Below, piece after piece: positions 594 to 9,392 of a DNA stretch of 40,415 bases. Under the pieces are notes generated by a model. That model was not told where the DNA came from, did no database searches, and worked only from the letters and a program-made list of their open reading frames with translations. The first letter of the stretch is position 1. Each line of letters begins with the position of its first letter. The stretch is from the IMG/VR virus record IMGVR_UViG_3300042360_000483, positions 1 to 40,415 of that record; one strand, written 5' to 3'. The translations under genes and the position numbers were made by a program. This DNA is from a virus. Its lineage: Duplodnaviria; Caudoviricetes.

Positions 594-1011
594 GCGTGAC
601 GCGCGCGATCCAGCTTTTGAGCGACTCGGTCAGGGTCTCCAACTCTGCTGGCCTACGGTCGAGCCACTCGATGCGATCGACGCCGGTCTGGCGCTTGCAG
701 AAGACGTTGAGCGACCGCGCTGAACGGTCCGCGACCGCGCCGAGCTGGTGCAGCTCGCCCCAGAGCGCGAGCAGCTTGCGGATCCGGGGCGAGGTCTTGT
801 TAACGCCTGGTGTCCAGCCGAGATGGCGCAGGTGCTCAAGCACGCGCTTGCGTCCGCCCCAGTCGAGGTCGCCGGCTGAGCGGACCCGCGCGACGGCATG
901 CAGCATCGCCTCATACGTGTCGCGATCAATGCCGAGCTGTTTCGCCGCGATGTGAATCTGCGCAAGCTCGGCCCTCCGCAGAGCGGCGCCATTGCGCTCA
1001 ACCGAGGCCAT
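571..1011 (-). CDS. gemA: GemA / Mu gp16 (DUF1018) family regulatory protein
   Basis: LAQIHIAAKQLGIDRDTYEAML...SAGDL...RKLLALWGEL...LKSW pattern; position before mor. Confidence 0.85.
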   Translation of the reverse strand: MASVERNGAALRRAELAQIHIAAKQLGIDRDTYEAMLHAVARVRSAGDLDWGGRKRVLEHLRHLGWTPGVNKTSPRIRKLLALWGELHQLGAVADRSARSLNVFCKRQTGVDRIEWLDRRPAELETLTESLKSWIARVTRGADARG

Positions 1012-1336
1012 ATTGTGCTGACGAAATCAAGTTAGGCCTCAAGGCGGCGCGCAGGCGGTCACACACACCCCACTCGTCGCCGTCGCGCTCAAGCGTGGCA
1101 ATCGCCTCACGCAACGCGCGCTCCTGCTTCTCTGCCATCAGCAGCAGGGCGCAAGCCCGGCCGACGTAGACGTGCCGAGAGAAGTCGACCAGGGGCTGGC
1201 CGCGGTAGCTGTAGGGGTGCCCGTACTCTTGTCGCAGCGCCATCCGAATCTCCTCCCACTCGGTGTGTTGAGGCCGAACTGGCGTTTCGAGCCGACCCGC
1301 GTCGGCGGGCGGCACCTGTGCGTCTTCATGCTTCAT
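998..1336 (-). CDS. Hypothetical protein, cassette 1 cargo
   Basis: GGAGG RBS and ATG inside attC-A; N-terminus AGRLETPVRP is encoded by the L''/R'' boxes. Confidence 0.7.
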   Translation of the reverse strand: MKHEDAQVPPADAGRLETPVRPQHTEWEEIRMALRQEYGHPYSYRGQPLVDFSRHVYVGRACALLLMAEKQERALREAIATLERDGDEWGVCDRLRAALRPNLISSAQYGLG

Positions 1337-1371
1337 CTGCGCCTCCTTGGCGGCTCAAACTATCGTTAGGC
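1273..1371 (+). other. attC-like recombination site A
   Basis: R'' GCCGAAC 1273-79, L'' TTTCGAGC 1285-92, L' GCTCAAA 1353-59, R' GTTAGGC 1365-71; extra C and extra A on the top strand. Confidence 0.8.
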
Positions 1372-1605
1372 CACATACGCGCGCCACCACCAGCGCCAGT
1401 ACTGGAGGCTCAGGAATCGGCCCCAGCCCAGCACCTCAGCGTGCATGCGCATGCGCACCTTGGCTGCTTCGCGCATGTTGATGGGCTCCAGCTTCGCCAG
1501 CGCGGCCCCGTACAACTCAAAGGCGCGGCGGGCTTCATCCAGGCTCATCCCTGTGCCGCGCACTCTAGGCAAGTCATTGGCGGTTGTGTGCTCGTTGGGT
1601 TCCAT
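1366..1605 (-). CDS. Hypothetical protein, cassette 2 cargo (ATG 1605; TTG 1626 alternative)
   Basis: ORF ends on a TAA formed by the R' core of attC-A; Trp-rich C-terminus. Confidence 0.6.
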   Translation of the reverse strand: MEPNEHTTANDLPRVRGTGMSLDEARRAFELYGAALAKLEPINMREAAKVRMRMHAEVLGWGRFLSLQYWRWWWRAYVA

Positions 1606-1608
1606 GTG

Positions 1609-1709
1609 GCCTAACTCTTCGGTCAACGGCGACCCGCCCCGGCGGGCCGCCTTGTTGCATCTTCCTACGTCAGCAGCGCCGGGTCGGTCGCGTTACCTCT
1701 ACGTTGGGC
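1609..1709 (+). other. attC-like recombination site B
   Basis: R'' GCCTAAC 1609-15, L'' GGTCAACG 1621-28, L' CGTTACC 1691-97, R' GTTGGGC 1703-09. Confidence 0.82.
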
Positions 1710-1713
1710 GTCT

Positions 1714-1959
1714 TCAGGCACGCAGAGCGCCCAGCACTTTGCGCTCGCAGTTTGCGTACCCTTCGGCCTCGCCATCTGCCCACGCCACTGCCAGCAGCCC
1801 ATCCATCGCATACGCAGCACGGAAGCTCGGGAAGTCCTGTCGCACAACAACCTCAACATCCCCAGTGCGGCGCTCTTCGGTGTAGCGCCACACGGCCACG
1901 CCGGATTCATCGTCCGGGGCGGCGCTGTTTGCCGTGAACTCAAATTTTGGCTTGCTCAT
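1714..1959 (-). CDS. Hypothetical protein, cassette 3 cargo
   Basis: AAAGGA RBS before ATG; ORF fills the cassette between attC-B and attC-C. Confidence 0.7.
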   Translation of the reverse strand: MSKPKFEFTANSAAPDDESGVAVWRYTEERRTGDVEVVVRQDFPSFRAAYAMDGLLAVAWADGEAEGYANCERKVLGALRA

Positions 1960-1989
1960 GTCGTCCTTTCGCGCCTTCGTTCACCAGCC

Positions 1990-2040
1990 GCCCAACCCTC
2001 GCTCAAGCCGACCTTCGGCGGCTTAGCTCGAACGTTAGGC
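1990..2040 (+). other. attC-like recombination site C (short, 51 bp)
   Basis: GCCCAAC-cctc-GCTCAAGC-cgaccttcggcg-GCTTAGC-tcgaac-GTTAGGC; classic 59-base-element architecture with extra C and A. Confidence 0.85.
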
Positions 2041-2042
2041 CC

Positions 2043-2357
2043 TCAAACCGGCCAAAGGTGGTTGCCGTGGCAGTCGTCGCCTGCGGCAGCGCCAAGGCAC
2101 ATACCAGCAGCTTCGTCGGCCGTCATTGCGCCGCACTGCTGGCACGGCGGCTGCTCCCATGCGTGCCGCGCTTCAGCGCACGCGCGGCACGCATGGGCTC
2201 GCTTGTCCACGCCGTGCGACACCTCGCCGCAGCGCTGGCAAGTGTTCATGTAGTTGCCGGGCGCGTAGCCGTAGCGCAGCAGGTGCTCGAACCCGCTCGC
2301 GTCGGGCCTAACCCCTCGCTCAAGCTGACCGGCCACGGCGTCACTGTTGGTTGTCAT
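2043..2357 (-). CDS. Cys-rich (CxxC x3) putative Zn-binding protein, cassette 4 cargo
   Basis: GAGGAG RBS and ATG inside attC-D; GYAPGNYMNTCQRC...CRAC...CQQC. Confidence 0.72.
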   Translation of the reverse strand: MTTNSDAVAGQLERGVRPDASGFEHLLRYGYAPGNYMNTCQRCGEVSHGVDKRAHACRACAEARHAWEQPPCQQCGAMTADEAAGMCLGAAAGDDCHGNHLWPV

Positions 2358-2398
2358 CGTTGCTCCTCGCGGCCGTGTCCGGCAGCTTAGCGTTAGGC
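2306..2398 (+). other. attC-like recombination site D (L'-R' spacer missing)
   Basis: R'' GCCTAAC 2306-12, L'' GCTCAAGC 2318-25, L' GCTTAGC 2385-91 directly abutting R' GTTAGGC 2392-98. Confidence 0.78.
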
Positions 2399-2410
2399 CC
2401 TACGCTTCAA

Positions 2411-2644
2411 CTAGGTCAGCACTTCGGCCAAGTCGTGCCGCAAGCTGTCCACGCTGTCGCGCATCTCGCGCATGTTGCGCGCCGCCTGCATCTGCGTCGG
2501 CAGGCCCGGCGGGTATGCGCAGCCCTTGAACGCCTCTCGGATATCGTCATCCACGAACTTCAGTTCGTCCGGGTACATCATCGGCAGCGTCGCAATCACC
2601 GGCGACACGTTGCCAACAATGCTTACTTGCTCTGCGTCCATCAT
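2411..2644 (-). CDS. Hypothetical protein, cassette 5 cargo
   Basis: GGAG RBS at 2649-2652; ORF fills the cassette. Confidence 0.65.
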   Translation of the reverse strand: MMDAEQVSIVGNVSPVIATLPMMYPDELKFVDDDIREAFKGCAYPPGLPTQMQAARNMREMRDSVDSLRHDLAEVLT

Positions 2645-2663
2645 CTCGCTCCAGTTAAAACGG

Positions 2664-2724
2664 GCCTAACCTGTCGCTCAATTCCAGCGACGCGCTACGC
2701 GCGCCGCTGAACACGGCGTGAGGC
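2664..2724 (+). other. attC-like recombination site E (degenerate)
   Basis: R'' GCCTAAC 2664-70, TTCCAGCG / CGCTGAA arms with extra C, variant R' GTGAGGC 2718-24; R''-L'' spacer 10 bp instead of 5. Confidence 0.62.
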
Positions 2725-2891
2725 CAAAGAAAACGGTGATCCGGCTCACCGCGGGCCAGCCGCGCCTGGTGCACTTGTTCGCCGCTCGCGCGGCTAGGGG
2801 CTCCCATCGTCGACCTGCGGGTGTTTTTTCGTCGGCCCACCGCCCGCTGGGACCGGCGTCGGCATCCAGCTCGCCGACGCATCTGCATGTG

Positions 2892-3431
2892 CTATGCGTC
2901 GAGGCTCTTGTCGTGCGCGAGCAGCGCGCTGACGAGCTTGTCGATTTCGCTTTCGGTGTCGCGAACGACCACCTGGTCGTCGTCGTCCTTGATGCTGACG
3001 CCAATGCGTTTGAGGTCTGCCGCCGAGAGCTGTTCGAGCGCGGCGCGGATGGGCGTGCGCTTGATGTCGATCAGCGCGTCGGCGGCGTCGGGCAGGTGCT
3101 TGTCGATGAGGCGGCAGACGGCCTCGCCATCGTCGTACACCAGCTTGCCTTTGCCCTTGGTCCAGCCGAACTTGACCCCGTCTACCGTCAACGTGCGCGG
3201 GCGATCGAACAGGTCTTTTCGGGTCTCGACCATGTGGCGAAGGGCGGCCTCACTGGCGCTCGCACGCTCAACTGCGCGCGTGATCTGCTTCATGGCTCGG
3301 CGTTTGGCCTCGGCAATCTCCGTCTGCAGGGCGCTGACCAACAGCCGCAGGTCGCGTCGATGCTCTGCATGCTTGCGCGCGGCAGTTTGGATCAGGTCCA
3401 TCGTGATAGCTTGATCGGTGGCGGTGGTCAT
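2892..3431 (-). CDS. gam: Gam-like host-nuclease inhibitor (DNA end protection)
   Basis: Coiled-coil N-terminus, then LFDRPRTLTVDGVKFGWTKGKGKL...LKRIGVSI, typical of Mu Gam relatives; early operon position. Confidence 0.7.
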   Translation of the reverse strand: MTTATDQAITMDLIQTAARKHAEHRRDLRLLVSALQTEIAEAKRRAMKQITRAVERASASEAALRHMVETRKDLFDRPRTLTVDGVKFGWTKGKGKLVYDDGEAVCRLIDKHLPDAADALIDIKRTPIRAALEQLSAADLKRIGVSIKDDDDQVVVRDTESEIDKLVSALLAHDKSLDA

Positions 3432-6032: not shown

Positions 6033-6382
6033 CAGTGCACCTCGCGCGCGTTGGGTTTGACCGCGGCGTCGTCGCGGCGCTCATACCACTGCACCCACAC
6101 GTGGCCGAGGGGTGTGGGAAACGCGAACCACATGAGGCTGCCGGATTGCGTGTCCACGCCATTAAGGCGGCGCGCCATCCGATCAACTTGCTCGTCGGTC
6201 GGCTGGGCAACCGTGAGCACTGCGCCGCTGGCCTCGTCAACGCGGAAGCCCAGGACGGTGTAGCCCGCGCCAATCAGCGCGTCCGTGGCCATGAGCACTC
6301 GGCCGATGTAGCCATTGATCGTCGCGAGGTTGGAGACCTGCATCGCAGCGCGATCAACGTGGAGCCCGTGGATGGTGGTCAT
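6032..6382 (-). CDS. Hypothetical protein
   Basis: ATG 6382 overlaps the ATPase stop. Confidence 0.6.
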   Translation of the reverse strand: MTTIHGLHVDRAAMQVSNLATINGYIGRVLMATDALIGAGYTVLGFRVDEASGAVLTVAQPTDEQVDRMARRLNGVDTQSGSLMWFAFPTPLGHVWVQWYERRDDAAVKPNAREVH

Positions 6383-7602
6383 GCTGCCCTCCGCATCACG
6401 TCGGCGTTGATGCTCGACAGGTCCACGCTCGCTGCGGCGTTCAGCGCCAGCGTCATCAGGTTGTTGATGGCGAGCGGGTAGCACACGGAGCGGTAGCTCT
6501 TGTCGCCGTGCTTGCCGATGGTCAGCCGCGACATGAGGGCACCGAAAGCTGCGTCGTCCATCACGTCGGCCAGGCGCTTGCCTGCGCGCGCCAGGCGGTG
6601 CTCGATGTAGCCCTTGGCGTGGCGGTCCCAGGGCTCCAGCGTCACGAGCTCGCAGCGCTGCGTGACTTCGCGCACCTCGGGATCGAACTCGGACAGCTTG
6701 TCGCGCAGCTCGGGCTGGCCGATCAGCACGATGCCCAGCAGCCGCTGCCGGCCGCTCTTGATCTCGTGGAATCCCTTGAGGTGCCGGATCGCGTGCTTGC
6801 TGAGACGGTGCGCCTCTTCGATCACCAGCAGGTGCTTGTTGCCAGTGCTGGCGCTCTCGGTCAGCAGCCGCTCAACGCGTCTGGCCTTGGCCTGCATGGT
6901 GGCCGGCGCGGGCGCGCTGGGCGCCAGTGCCCAGCAGATCACGTCCATGATGGCGCCGGCGGTGAGCGGGCGGCCCTTGGCCTCGCTGTCGTCCATGCCG
7001 AGCGTGCTCGGCTGGATGATGACGAACTCCTTGCGGTCGCGCTGCAGGCGTTCGATCAGGTCTTCGCGGATCGTGCTCTTGCCGGCACCGCTCTCACCTG
7101 TGACGGCAAGAAAGCCGGCATTGCGCGCGGCGTGCATCAGCGCCTCGCGCACGTACCGCACGTCGGGCGTCTGGAACAGGTCCTCGTCGCTCTCGACCTC
7201 GAGCGCAAACGGGTTGGTGGGCAGACCGAAGCGCTGCTTCGCGGCCTCGGTCAACACTTGCCTTCGGAGTAACATCGTGGGGTCCTCTGCTGTGGTGGTG
7301 GGGGGCAACTCCGGCCCGGTGCTGTTTGCAGCAGCACTGGGCCGATCCTTTTCCGCCGTCGCGGGCGCGGCGGCGGGTGAAACTGCGTTGATGCTCAGCG
7401 CGATCTCGGCTGCGGTCGCGCCCTGCTTGCGCAGCGCGCCTTCGAGCCGCGCGCAAACCTGCGCGCGGTCCACGCGCACCGGCCACACGCCGTGATTGAG
7501 CACGGCCGTCAGCGCGGGCCTGCTCAGGCCGATCTCCGGCGCCAGGTCCTGCTGGCGCAGGCGCAGGCGCTTGAGGGTCAGCGAAAGGGGGTGCAGAGTC
7601 AT
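6379..7602 (-). CDS. Transposition ATPase (MuB-like, ExeA-type AAA) with N-terminal HTH
   Basis: Walker A GESGAGKS, Walker B LLVIEEAH, LIGQPEL; ATG 7602 overlaps the transposase stop; HTH QQDLAPEIGLSRPALTAVL. Confidence 0.9.
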   Translation of the reverse strand: MTLHPLSLTLKRLRLRQQDLAPEIGLSRPALTAVLNHGVWPVRVDRAQVCARLEGALRKQGATAAEIALSINAVSPAAAPATAEKDRPSAAANSTGPELPPTTTAEDPTMLLRRQVLTEAAKQRFGLPTNPFALEVESDEDLFQTPDVRYVREALMHAARNAGFLAVTGESGAGKSTIREDLIERLQRDRKEFVIIQPSTLGMDDSEAKGRPLTAGAIMDVICWALAPSAPAPATMQAKARRVERLLTESASTGNKHLLVIEEAHRLSKHAIRHLKGFHEIKSGRQRLLGIVLIGQPELRDKLSEFDPEVREVTQRCELVTLEPWDRHAKGYIEHRLARAGKRLADVMDDAAFGALMSRLTIGKHGDKSYRSVCYPLAINNLMTLALNAAASVDLSSINADVMRRAA

Positions 7603-9392
7603 GCGGCACCTCCCTGCGCAACGCCGTTGCTCACCAGGCGCAGCGGCTGCGGTGCTGCGGGCGCCTCGGCCGGCGTGGTGCACGCGGCCACAATGCCGGC
7701 GATGGCGGTCTCGGGCACGCCCTGCGCGTAGCGCTCGCCAATCCACTGACGCACGCGCGCGCTGATGGCTTCGTACTCGTGGCGGCCGACCAGGTCGCGC
7801 ACGCGGAACAGTGCGTCGGTCACGCTCAGCATCAGCGGTGCCACGCTCGGCGCGCCGTCCACCTGCAGGTCGGTCGTGGCGCGCGGCAGCCGGTCTGGCA
7901 ACTGCGCGACCTTCACGTCGGCAAACGCGTCGATGTGCGGCAGCGGCCTGGCGCGCTTGCGCTGCGCGGCCTCGGCTTCCTCCAGCGTGTCTACGCCGTA
8001 GGTCTTGAGCAGGACCTCGTTGCGGTTGCGGTCGACCTCGGTCTGCGGTGGTGGCGCAAAGGTCTCGCCCCACACGGCGGCGTCGGCGGCAAAGCCCGCG
8101 GCGTTGAACTGCTGCGGCGCCACCGTGTGCCATGTGTCGTCGGTCTCTGGCCGCAGCAGCGCGCGCACGCGCAGCGTGTCGAGGCAGAACGGATTGGTGA
8201 TGACCTCCACCTTGCCGCCCACGAACACGTGCGGCACGCCGCGCACGGAGTAGATGCGCGAGCGGCGGCCGCGCGCGGCGAAGCTGATGGTCACGTCATC
8301 CGCCACGCGGCGGTGCTCGGGGCTGCTCTCCACGAGCAGGCGCAGCGCATCCGCGTTGGGCGGGATCATCACTTGCTCGGGCCGCGCGCTGGTGAGCAAA
8401 TCAACGCGGTTGCGCTCGATGCCGTCTTTGCGCACGATGGGCACCGTCTCGTTGAAGTGGTGGCCCCACGTGTCGGCGAGCGCGTTGATCTGCTCAACCG
8501 AGCGGATGTCCTCAAACTTCAGCCGGCCCTCGAACTCGCACTCGATGCGGTTGTGGAACCCTTCCACGCCGCCCTTGGCGCGCGCGTTGCCGACCGAGTG
8601 CACGATCACGCGCACGTTGAGCCTGTCCATCAGCAGCAGCACTTCGTCGCTCACGTTGGCCGCACCGGGATCGAGGATCAAAATGCGCGGCACACCGCGC
8701 AGGGGGTCGCGCTCGCCCTTGGCGGTGAAGGCCCAGAGCAGGAAGTCGAGCAGGTTGCGCACGCTCTCGCCGCCGGTGCAGTAGCGCGCGCGGCCATAGC
8801 CGGAGTAGTGATCGCGAATGGCGTAGCGCAGCAGGCGCTTGCGGGCGATCTTTTCGAAGTGATCGGGCTTGTTGTCGTTGAACTCGACCGGCCCCATGTT
8901 GCGCAGGCCGCGGCTCTCATCGAGGTAGTACAGGGTGGGGATGGAGGCATCCACCTGCACCACGTGCAACGGGTGGTCGCTGCGCATGCTGCTGGCCGGG
9001 TCCGGCGCGGAGAGCTGCGTCGGGTGCAGGCCCAACGACCATAGCTTGCGCGTGAGGCGGCCGGCGCCGACGGGCATCTCAATGCCGTTGGCGGCCACGA
9101 TGTCGCTGGCGCGCGTCACGCTCAGCGTGCGCTTGCCGTTGGCGCGCACGCTGGCCATGACCATCGCGGTGGCGGTGAGCGCTGCGTCGCGGTCGACCGA
9201 GGTGTCGCCAGCGTCTGAGCGCCGCACACGGCCGCTCACGCGGCCGCAGCGGTTAAGGTAGCGCTCGAGCTGGCGCACGCTCACGCCCATGCAGGATGCC
9301 CAGCGCGCCTTGATTGACGCACGGTCGCCGTGCGGCGCGGCGCGCAGTTCATCGCGCGCCTTGATGGTCAGGCCGACTTCGGACTCGGTCAT
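7599..9392 (-). CDS. DDE transposase (MuA-like)
   Basis: VVQVDAS, LILDPGAAN, NARAKGGVEGFH catalytic D-D-E motifs; 597 aa; adjacent ATPase. Confidence 0.92.
   Translation of the reverse strand: MTESEVGLTIKARDELRAAPHGDRASIKARWASCMGVSVRQLERYLNRCGRVSGRVRRSDAGDTSVDRDAALTATAMVMASVRANGKRTLSVTRASDIVAANGIEMPVGAGRLTRKLWSLGLHPTQLSAPDPASSMRSDHPLHVVQVDASIPTLYYLDESRGLRNMGPVEFNDNKPDHFEKIARKRLLRYAIRDHYSGYGRARYCTGGESVRNLLDFLLWAFTAKGERDPLRGVPRILILDPGAANVSDEVLLLMDRLNVRVIVHSVGNARAKGGVEGFHNRIECEFEGRLKFEDIRSVEQINALADTWGHHFNETVPIVRKDGIERNRVDLLTSARPEQVMIPPNADALRLLVESSPEHRRVADDVTISFAARGRRSRIYSVRGVPHVFVGGKVEVITNPFCLDTLRVRALLRPETDDTWHTVAPQQFNAAGFAADAAVWGETFAPPPQTEVDRNRNEVLLKTYGVDTLEEAEAAQRKRARPLPHIDAFADVKVAQLPDRLPRATTDLQVDGAPSVAPLMLSVTDALFRVRDLVGRHEYEAISARVRQWIGERYAQGVPETAIAGIVAACTTPAEAPAAPQPLRLVSNGVAQGGAA

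Follow-up and report, generated by a model that had tools for sequence, protein, structure and literature searches.

The window analysed here, the virus record IMGVR_UViG_3300042360_000483 (G000) at its full length of 40,415 nucleotides, is a single contig with an estimated completeness of 83 % and belongs to a Mu-like transposable phage, with a transposase, a transposition protein, Gam, GemA and a Mor-like gene in the early region, all on the minus strand. Five small minus-strand open reading frames (ORFs) without family names, interspersed with attC recombination sites, occupy the interval between gam (2892-3431) and gemA (571-1011). This region is probably an array of five inverted integron-type cassettes which lacks an integrase of its own and is likely shuffled by the integrase of a host, and the loops of two of its attC sites, A and D, likely hold the real translation starts of the genes of cassettes 1 and 4. 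The interpretation is based on comparison of sequences.

attC sites and polarity of the array

Five attC sites (A to E) were found on the plus strand at 1273-2724, together with a lone attI-like core at 1031 (Table 1). Sites A and B carry the full set of attC boxes (R'' RYYYAAC, R' GTTRRRY, L'' and L' with one extra base, and spacers of about 5-6 nt), site C has a 4-nt spacer, and sites D and E conform only in part. A detector run over 1001-2760 reported four sites on the plus strand and none on the minus strand, missing the degenerate site E; its chance rate in 300 dinucleotide shuffles was 0.045 per strand, with a maximum of 2, and elsewhere in the window it returned weak matches, three on the plus and two on the minus strand. 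When folded as RNA, sites B, C, D and E were each better than all 200 shuffles (z -2.7 to -4.4), and in the hairpins R paired with R and L with L.

The top strand of attCaadA7 has an extra C in L'', followed by CGAC (Table S3, PMC9892861), and sites C and D share this layout, which identifies the plus strand of the window as the top strand and puts the genes on the bottom strand. As every ORF is on the bottom strand, each attC stands before its own gene. A sequence-only reading of this DNA had already placed the cassette ORFs opposite to the attC polarity, and this was borne out, the array with its five sites and lone core being wider than first described. With clustered attC sites (at least 2-3) of a single polarity and no integrase nearby, the region has the properties of a cluster of attC sites lacking integron-integrases (CALIN). 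It does not have the Pc promoter reading cassettes on the top strand of a complete integron, nor do its cassettes have the canonical form of a top-strand gene with attC at its 3' end.

Other contigs have site A, at 89-98 % identity, flanked by unrelated genes. In both the window (2385-2398) and L306, site D lacks the 6-bp spacer separating L' from R', which L043, L063 and L071 have, while its Shine-Dalgarno (SD) motif, ATG and frame are intact. Because this spacer is missing, site D is probably a poor recombination substrate; its sequence suggests that it may have lost recombination yet kept its role in translation.

Exchange of cassettes in sister phages

Seven sister metagenome contigs, with a backbone 93.5-99.6 % identical to that of the window, carry four other first cassettes, each joined at the G|TT of the 1031 core. 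L306 keeps site D with cassettes 4 and 5, its identity beginning at the R' core of site C (2033-2034). In L299, L300 and L302 an attC is joined at the G|TT of a non-attC site within cassette 5 (2563), half of the gene being left, and this junction fits a natural product of secondary-site recombination of the kind seen at attG sites. The DNA runs that contain most of the stretch are lake or freshwater metagenomes. The comparison of DNA runs covered one set of four. In run X4 other sequence connects the 1031 end with the start of cassette 5 on a 943-base contig, alongside contigs with cassettes 1, 2 and 4, and contig depth gives no share of molecules; another run, X1, is possibly the source of the window and not independent of it. 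Many apparent joints at 2040-2305 in the comparison of DNA runs were ignored, as they were other attC sites matching both arms.

R'' fitted its own upstream core better than the downstream core in 79 informative viral cassettes versus 13 with the opposite preference (8 ties, 80 uninformative), and in the window the own upstream core was favoured in both of the two cases. The sister-phage junctions and this covariation place the crossover between the G and TT of R' and identify the unit as the canonical core-to-core cassette, in which attC travels with the gene it precedes.

The layout CTAH-N5-GTT, which we take to be that of an attI simple site, occurred at 10 of the 18 starts of viral arrays of three or more sites (L011, L012, L016, L021, L036, L047, L053, L066, L069 and L078), compared with 96 of 14690 background GTT (0.65 %). 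The 1031 site of the window has CGAA, one mismatch to the CTAH motif. Given its reuse by at least five different first cassettes, 1031 appears to behave as a dedicated attI-like site, and the motif counts suggest that phages carry attI-like sites of their own without intI.

Orientation of cassettes in phages and chromosomes

A single pattern derived from site D was scanned against viral contigs (117 stretches) and bacterial genomes (at least 165), with wide flanks for 80 of each, and orientation was called by the longest ORF, without a gene caller. Among 180 viral cassettes from 52 loci the longest ORF was on the bottom strand in 80, on the top strand in 17 and undecided in 83; for the genomes, among the matches listed, 68 of 89 cassettes (29 loci) were top, 4 bottom and 17 undecided. 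L131, apparently a prophage array, accounts for two of the four exceptions among the genome cassettes. Further loci of the Rubrivivax genus gave 14 top, 1 bottom and 3 undecided of 18. Judged by ORF length, the inversion is phage-specific. AT skew was dropped as an independent strand signal, being negative in both sets.

Two published phage CALINs differed in orientation, TJE1 being canonical (2 arms) and ctTUS972 (MW202573) inverted, with 3 bottom-strand arms on the gene strand. The ctTUS972 arms correspond to L314 (MW202573) 1874-2340, and their inversion is not stated in the text of PMC9892861 as far as it was available. Single reversed cassettes are described in a Xanthomonas preprint (10.1101/2025.06.18.660453).

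By eye, DNA methyltransferase-like ORFs occur as inverted cassettes in L301 (123-815, top-strand coordinates), L284 and L131, one of them at the 1031 site of a sister phage. A 176-amino-acid ORF in the array region of another sister phage (L305 1474-2004, top-strand coordinates) resembles, also by eye, a tape-measure fragment.

Probable translation starts within attC loops

The positions assigned to the SD motifs and ATG codons of sites A and D in the sequence-only reading (Table 1) were right, as was that of the TAA at 1368-1366 (minus strand) with which the core of site A ends the ORF of cassette 2. The proteins predicted from the two loop starts pass through L'' and R'' and read MKHEDAQVPPADAGRLETPVRP and MTTNSDAVAGQLERGVRP.

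The phase of such starts was tested in the 97 of 180 viral cassettes that could be scored, with the frame fixed from the gene body only and sites of 80 bp or more taken as long. An SD with ATG lay in phase with the gene in 27 of 47 long sites, the other two phases having 6 and 1, and 22 of these 27 genes had no SD and start in the first 60 nt past R'', five having one. None of the 50 short sites had a loop start, and 44 of their genes had a start of their own. By hand count, the 27 loop starts comprise 15 leaders in the V[RG] frame and 12 in the LG frame, both stop-free readings of the arms. A bottom-strand SD with ATG was present in 44 of 78 long viral sites and, among the matches listed, in 5 of 38 long genome sites, compared with 0 of 78 on the top strand of the viral sites; Rubrivivax-genus sites which share the arms of site D had it in 1 of 30. 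The window repeats the pattern, with loop starts in A and D and with the short sites C and E preceding genes that have their own SD, while in site B the start has been lost, CTG standing at the position of the ATG with a TAG two codons on and an out-of-frame ATG giving a 28-amino-acid peptide. As a qualification to the claim of starts inside attC, loop starts were seen in two of the five sites in the window and in 27 of the 97 scorable viral cassettes.

For cassettes 1 and 4, whether read in the VR or the LG frame, conserved sequence begins directly past R'' without a conserved Met; in cassette 4 the conserved block HLLRYGYAPG follows R'' by a few codons, among which there is no in-frame ATG, GTG or TTG. 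The SD motifs and in-frame ATG codons in the loops of A and D are, on this evidence, likely the real starts of cassettes 1 and 4. If the loop ATGs were instead incidental, with the real starts past R'' (Met32 in cassette 1 and Met37 in cassette 4), the arm peptides would be gene-calling artefacts. Met32 does have a strong SD before it, no amino acid selection is visible in the leader, the ORF behind site B persists although the loop start is lost, and five of the 27 loop-start genes have a downstream SD and start as well. Met32, however, is unconserved within a conserved block, being Leu in three of the four full-length homologs of cassette 1, and a start at Met37 would remove the HLLRYGYAPG block; nor would incidental ATGs explain the phase bias of 27:6:1, the complementary pattern of the short sites or the rarity of SD with ATG in host sites of equal length, so that this alternative has little chance of being correct.

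Peptides of the forms GxLExxVR and SxxxLG, of the kind for which the sequence-only reading proposed a search of phage proteomes, are the two open readings of the conserved attC arms and not selected peptides. In the A-family leader 3 synonymous and 10 non-synonymous distinct codon changes were found, with no visible amino acid selection. The leader of site A recurs in fusion with unrelated genes, both in six database proteins (P0020, P0024, P0026, P0027, P0028 and P0029, of which P0026 and P0029 are related to each other) and in several contigs. Cassettes 1 and 4 vary in the leader that they carry, which can be in either frame, and in L284 the gene of cassette 4 is joined to an A-type site. 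Such exchange of leaders could come from top-strand events at R'', from homologous exchange of arms or from cassette genesis.

One leader on many unrelated genes, and one gene with different leaders in both frames, are also what a crossover at R'' would give, by which a gene would be translated from the attC of its neighbour and cassette order would switch translation on or off by frame. This is very improbable, because in L306 site D stays with cassette 4 and the break falls at the R' core of site C, core covariation is 79 versus 13 in favour of the canonical unit, and the loop starts are mostly in frame.

The TAA supplied by the core of site A is the only such stop among the five window ORFs. 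A core TAA ends the bottom-strand ORF in 86 of the 180 viral cassettes, and a top-strand ORF ends in R'' in 45.

Predicted folding of the loop-start sites

The evidence on hairpins consists of folding predictions. In 29 loop-start sites the predicted unpaired fraction was 0.64 for the AUG and 0.54 for the SD, compared with 0.44 for the variable region (Wilcoxon p about 1e-5 for the AUG), and at sites A and D the predicted accessibility was 0.58-0.65 with or without the 3' arm. The centroid structure of site D has a 24-nt open loop across the SD and AUG. As host sites with the same arms are near-perfect stems of 126-132 bp, the phage sites look opened rather than closed.

The sequence-only reading had combined a phage-adapted cassette class that carries its own initiation signal with possible hairpin control of translation. 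The first part stands, as a phage-specific inverted class with its own SD and start in long attC sites, and the second is not supported, given that the AUG is less paired than the rest of the variable region and that the 3' arm leaves accessibility unchanged. Under hairpin control, the SD and AUG would be hidden in the folded attC of the mRNA and exposed when a protein, or a ribosome upstream, opened it. In its favour, attC stems hinder ribosomes in class 1 integrons (PMC8876359), the predicted mRNA hairpins are stable (-37 and -41 kcal/mol), the SD of site A is partly paired, and coupling is possible, as an upstream frame ends in the R' TAA 18-62 nt before the AUG in 17 of the 29 loop-start sites and within 15 nt of the AUG in three of the 29. 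Against this, the AUG and SD are the least-paired part, the loop of D is open, accessibility is unaffected by the 3' arm and the phage sites are opened relative to host stems with the same arms; hairpin control is accordingly regarded as unlikely. Translational coupling inside the loop was rejected as uncommon (3/29). A simpler reading of the models would be that the phage loops have opened to escape the block that attC stems pose to ribosomes, an effect described for class 1 integrons (PMC8876359), although generally modest (PMC11511950).

Likely source of the integrase

No candidate for IntI (TIGR02249) was found in the window, a record estimated to be 83 % complete. A match over the cut-off was present in one of 42 viral records, and 4 of 42 had weaker tyrosine recombinase matches. 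Of five genomes with this type of attC, four have IntI over the cut-off, including G042, which also has an inverted array. Matches to the R''-L'' arm of site D occurred in 83 of 201 genomes of the Rubrivivax genus, the best being 91-94 % identical over 34-42 nt. Site A at full length was not found in 401 genomes of the G042 family, which gave 13 partial matches. Phage attC sites recombine with IntI1 (PMC9892861), and host IntI acting in trans is inferred to be the likeliest source of the enzyme.

Exchange without IntI would proceed by homologous or phage-encoded recombination between similar arms, as in the PeSL elements of T4-type phages, or by another tyrosine recombinase. The lack of IntI in the phage, the weaker tyrosine recombinase matches in 4 of 42 viral records, the identical leaders joined to unrelated genes at R'' and the described shuffling of PeSLs (PMC2839356) are consistent with it. 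The junctions, however, fall at G|TT even with a non-repeat partner (1031 and 2563), R'' covaries with its own core, an attI-like L box is found at 10 of 18 array starts and IntI1 recombines phage attC sites (PMC9892861), which together make exchange without IntI distinctly unlikely.

The viral record L308/L073 has a complete IntI, a canonical first cassette and repeated near-identical attC sites, and may be host DNA.

Observations weighing against the interpretation

Several observations weigh against the inverted, host-shuffled array with starts in its loops. Site A pairs its boxes, but its z was -1.0 and 28 of 200 shuffles were as good (RNA), and parts of the array may be frozen, since D lacks the spacer and E is degenerate. 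The 83 of 180 viral cassettes left undecided by ORF length bear on the inversion, as does the collection of the viral loci by the site D pattern, by which they are not independent. AT skew, negative in 165 of 180 viral and, among the matches listed, 61 of 89 genome cassettes, gives no clean split. Among the 42 viral records the only one whose IntI match exceeds the cut-off starts with a canonical cassette, so that inversion does not extend to every viral record; the genome G042 is a metagenome bin. As to the starts, the phase test drops 83 of 180 cassettes (63 with no cassette-filling frame and 20 with two frames), the alternative start Met32 of cassette 1 (1243) has a strong SD in the window genome, exchange of leaders on the R'' side is not produced by bottom-strand recombination, and RNA runs cover a fraction of 0.05-0.09 of the stretch.

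Proposed mechanism

If the interpretation holds, transcription from a phage early promoter would read the array toward gemA, giving mRNA of bottom-strand sequence, while a betaproteobacterial host would supply IntI in trans and new cassettes would enter mostly at the 1031 end. Each gene would then have its own attC as 5' leader, in which a long hairpin would hinder initiation; the phage sites appear to have kept the host-type arms, with an open loop that contains SD and AUG in place of the long paired stem. From there the ribosome would pass through L'' and R'', of which two frames are free of stops, and translation in either would add a leader of 17-26 residues that would be under frame constraint but little amino acid constraint. 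Because the crossover lies upstream of the SD, shuffling never parts a gene from its start.

Relation to known systems

Phage CALINs, ORF-11, short ORFs in attC, attG sites and PeSLs are already known. The phage CALINs of Qi et al. (2023, PMC9892861) likewise are IntI-less attC clusters with small unknown genes and methyltransferases as cargo and were recombined with IntI1, but the text, as far as it was available, describes neither genes opposite to attC nor starts inside it; the element of the window differs in belonging to a Mu-like phage, in its fixed attI-like site and in the cassette turnover observed for it. The sedentary chromosomal integrons of Rubrivivax-type Betaproteobacteria share near-identical R''-L'' and L'-R' arms, the G|TT crossover and the cassette unit, but differ in having IntI, top-strand genes, attC behind the gene, stems of 126-132 bp and SD with ATG in only 1 of 30 sites. 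ORF-11 of attI1 and the short ORFs in attC (PMC8876359) resemble the present sites as translation signals within a recombination site which aid cassette expression. They are, however, separate top-strand ORFs with reinitiation on the next cassette, whereas the start proposed for the window belongs to the gene itself, with which it is fused in frame on the bottom strand, and travels together with the cassette. At attG sites (bioRxiv 10.1101/2022.09.11.507474) IntI joins attC to non-att GWT sites, which fits 2563 but not 1031, a site that is reused and no one-off target. The PeSLs of T4-type phages (PMC2839356) are also repeated stem-loops with expression signals between small accessory genes and promote modular shuffling, but they are units of a sigma-70 promoter and a terminator, unlike the integron boxes, exact G|TT junctions and absence of promoter-like sites in this region.

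A search of mainly open literature turned up neither systematically inverted phage arrays nor attC loops with in-frame starts, although the figures of PMC9892861 or its Dryad annotation may show inversion. The locus contributes the setting in a transposable phage, sister genomes whose junctions are exact, the complementarity of long and short sites and the attI-like motif.

In the integron model attC stands behind the gene and strand preference faces the genes to Pc; here the same sites and crossover serve reversed genes. If this is true, the host integrases that stock anti-phage genes also diversify the early regions of phages, and many small phage proteins with odd N-termini are translated recombination arms. 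The identical attC leaders on unrelated genes offer a tractable case for how a gene becomes joined to an attC, and a unit of 100 bases that combines recombination site and start site would be a useful part for shuffling libraries.

More tentatively, and as a possibility of clearly less than even likelihood, phages may run a mirror-image integron on the host integrase, with attI-like sites of their own and attC sites as portable start modules, where grafting of leaders at R'' mints ready-to-express cassettes and reversed polarity acts as a firewall. R'' grafting would then be a visible route of cassette genesis, and host defence cassettes in a phage array would be antisense and silent, as would phage cassettes in a host integron. 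The 17 viral cassettes with the longer ORF on the top strand were considered as captured host cassettes and rejected, as by eye they were mostly antisense shadows of GTG- or TTG-started frames over phage-like bottom-strand genes, and for this reason no example was gained for a firewall.

Cassette genes and neighbouring phage genes

The features of the region are listed in Table 1.

Table 1 Positions of the attC sites, cassette genes and flanking phage genes in the window
Feature	Position	Strand	Remarks
attI-like insertion point	1019-1037	+	Core GTTAGGC 1031-1037, degenerate L-box-like CGAA five bases ahead; without attC partner
attC site A, 99 bp	1273-1371	+	Minus-strand SD GGAGG 1346-1342, ATG 1336; R' gives TAA of cassette 2
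attC site B, 101 bp	1609-1709	+	Relative of the A family; SD and loop ATG lost
attC site C, 51 bp (short)	1990-2040	+	Without loop start; R'' GCCCAAC matches own upstream core GTTGGGC at 1703
attC site D, 93 bp	2306-2398	+	Minus-strand SD GAGGAG 2368-2363, ATG 2357; without 6-bp L'-R' spacer
attC site E, 61 bp	2664-2724	+	Degenerate L' and R' (GTGAGGC); distal end of array
Secondary core GTTCGTC	2563-2569	+	Within cassette 5 gene; attC joined here in L299, L300 and L302
Cassette 1 gene, 112 aa	998-1336	-	Likely starts in loop of site A; reads L'' and R'' in VR frame; crosses 1031 core
Cassette 2 ORF, 79 aa	1366-1605	-	ATG just past R'' of site B, weak SD
Cassette 3 gene, 81 aa	1714-1959	-	Own SD and ATG, 31 nt beyond short site C
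Cassette 4 gene, 104 aa, cysteine-rich	2043-2357	-	Likely starts in loop of site D; weak double zinc ribbon match
Cassette 5 gene, 77 aa	2411-2644	-	Own SD GGAG
gemA-like gene, fixed phage gene	571-1011	-	Pfam PF06252, E 4.7e-25; downstream of array on early strand; common to sister phages
Mu Gam-like gene, fixed phage gene	2892-3431	-	PHROG 491, E 8e-16; upstream of array on early strand

The reading of the minus-strand ORFs as genes was upheld by homologs for cassettes 1, 3 and 4 and by a relative of cassette 5 in L296, while cassette 2 has no homologs in support. PHROGs and Pfam gave no name for any of the five proteins, except a weak zinc ribbon match below the cut-off for cassette 4. Cassette 1 had 15 protein matches, four of them full-length. 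For cassette 2 the viral scan gave only a chance match of 14 residues and no protein-database search was made, the support being its geometry. Cassette 3 has 36 relatives besides itself, with conservation starting at its own Met in the 12 aligned; viral scans gave no relative, and its Atlas matches were all under 0.9. Cassette 4 has 13 relatives besides itself; compared with L284 in the minus frame, its codon changes are 16 synonymous and 6 non-synonymous, a better ratio than in any other of the six frames. The same test did not separate the strands for cassette 5 and its relative in L296 (minus 10/9 versus antisense 9/10). In L306 the allele of cassette 5 is 83 amino acids long and stops in the TAA of site D, the window allele being shorter by 6 codons.

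A blastn search of 950-2800 against 50,697 phage records gave no match, Rfam gave nothing above the gathering score in 900-3000, and a scan of viral contigs for gemA found five loci, all without an array. A simple scan of 800-3000 gave no sigma-70-like site and the region has one terminator-like site (2733-2752, minus strand), outside the attC sites and between gam and site E; if it is real, the array would need read-through or a promoter of its own. Near it, at 2813-2885 (minus strand), there is a weak Rfam match to the Proteo-phage-1 RNA (24.5 bits, cut-off 42).

The ORFs of the transposition protein and the transposase (6379-8133 and 7599-9392, minus strand) overlap by more than 500 bases when the former is counted from its first ATG, and the true start of the transposition protein is probably further in. 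At the other end of the array, the frame of cassette 1 crosses the 1031 core and stops 14 nt into gemA, overlapping it from its ATG, while the first cassettes of the sister phages stop at or just before the core; translation of gemA could be coupled to whichever cassette is first.

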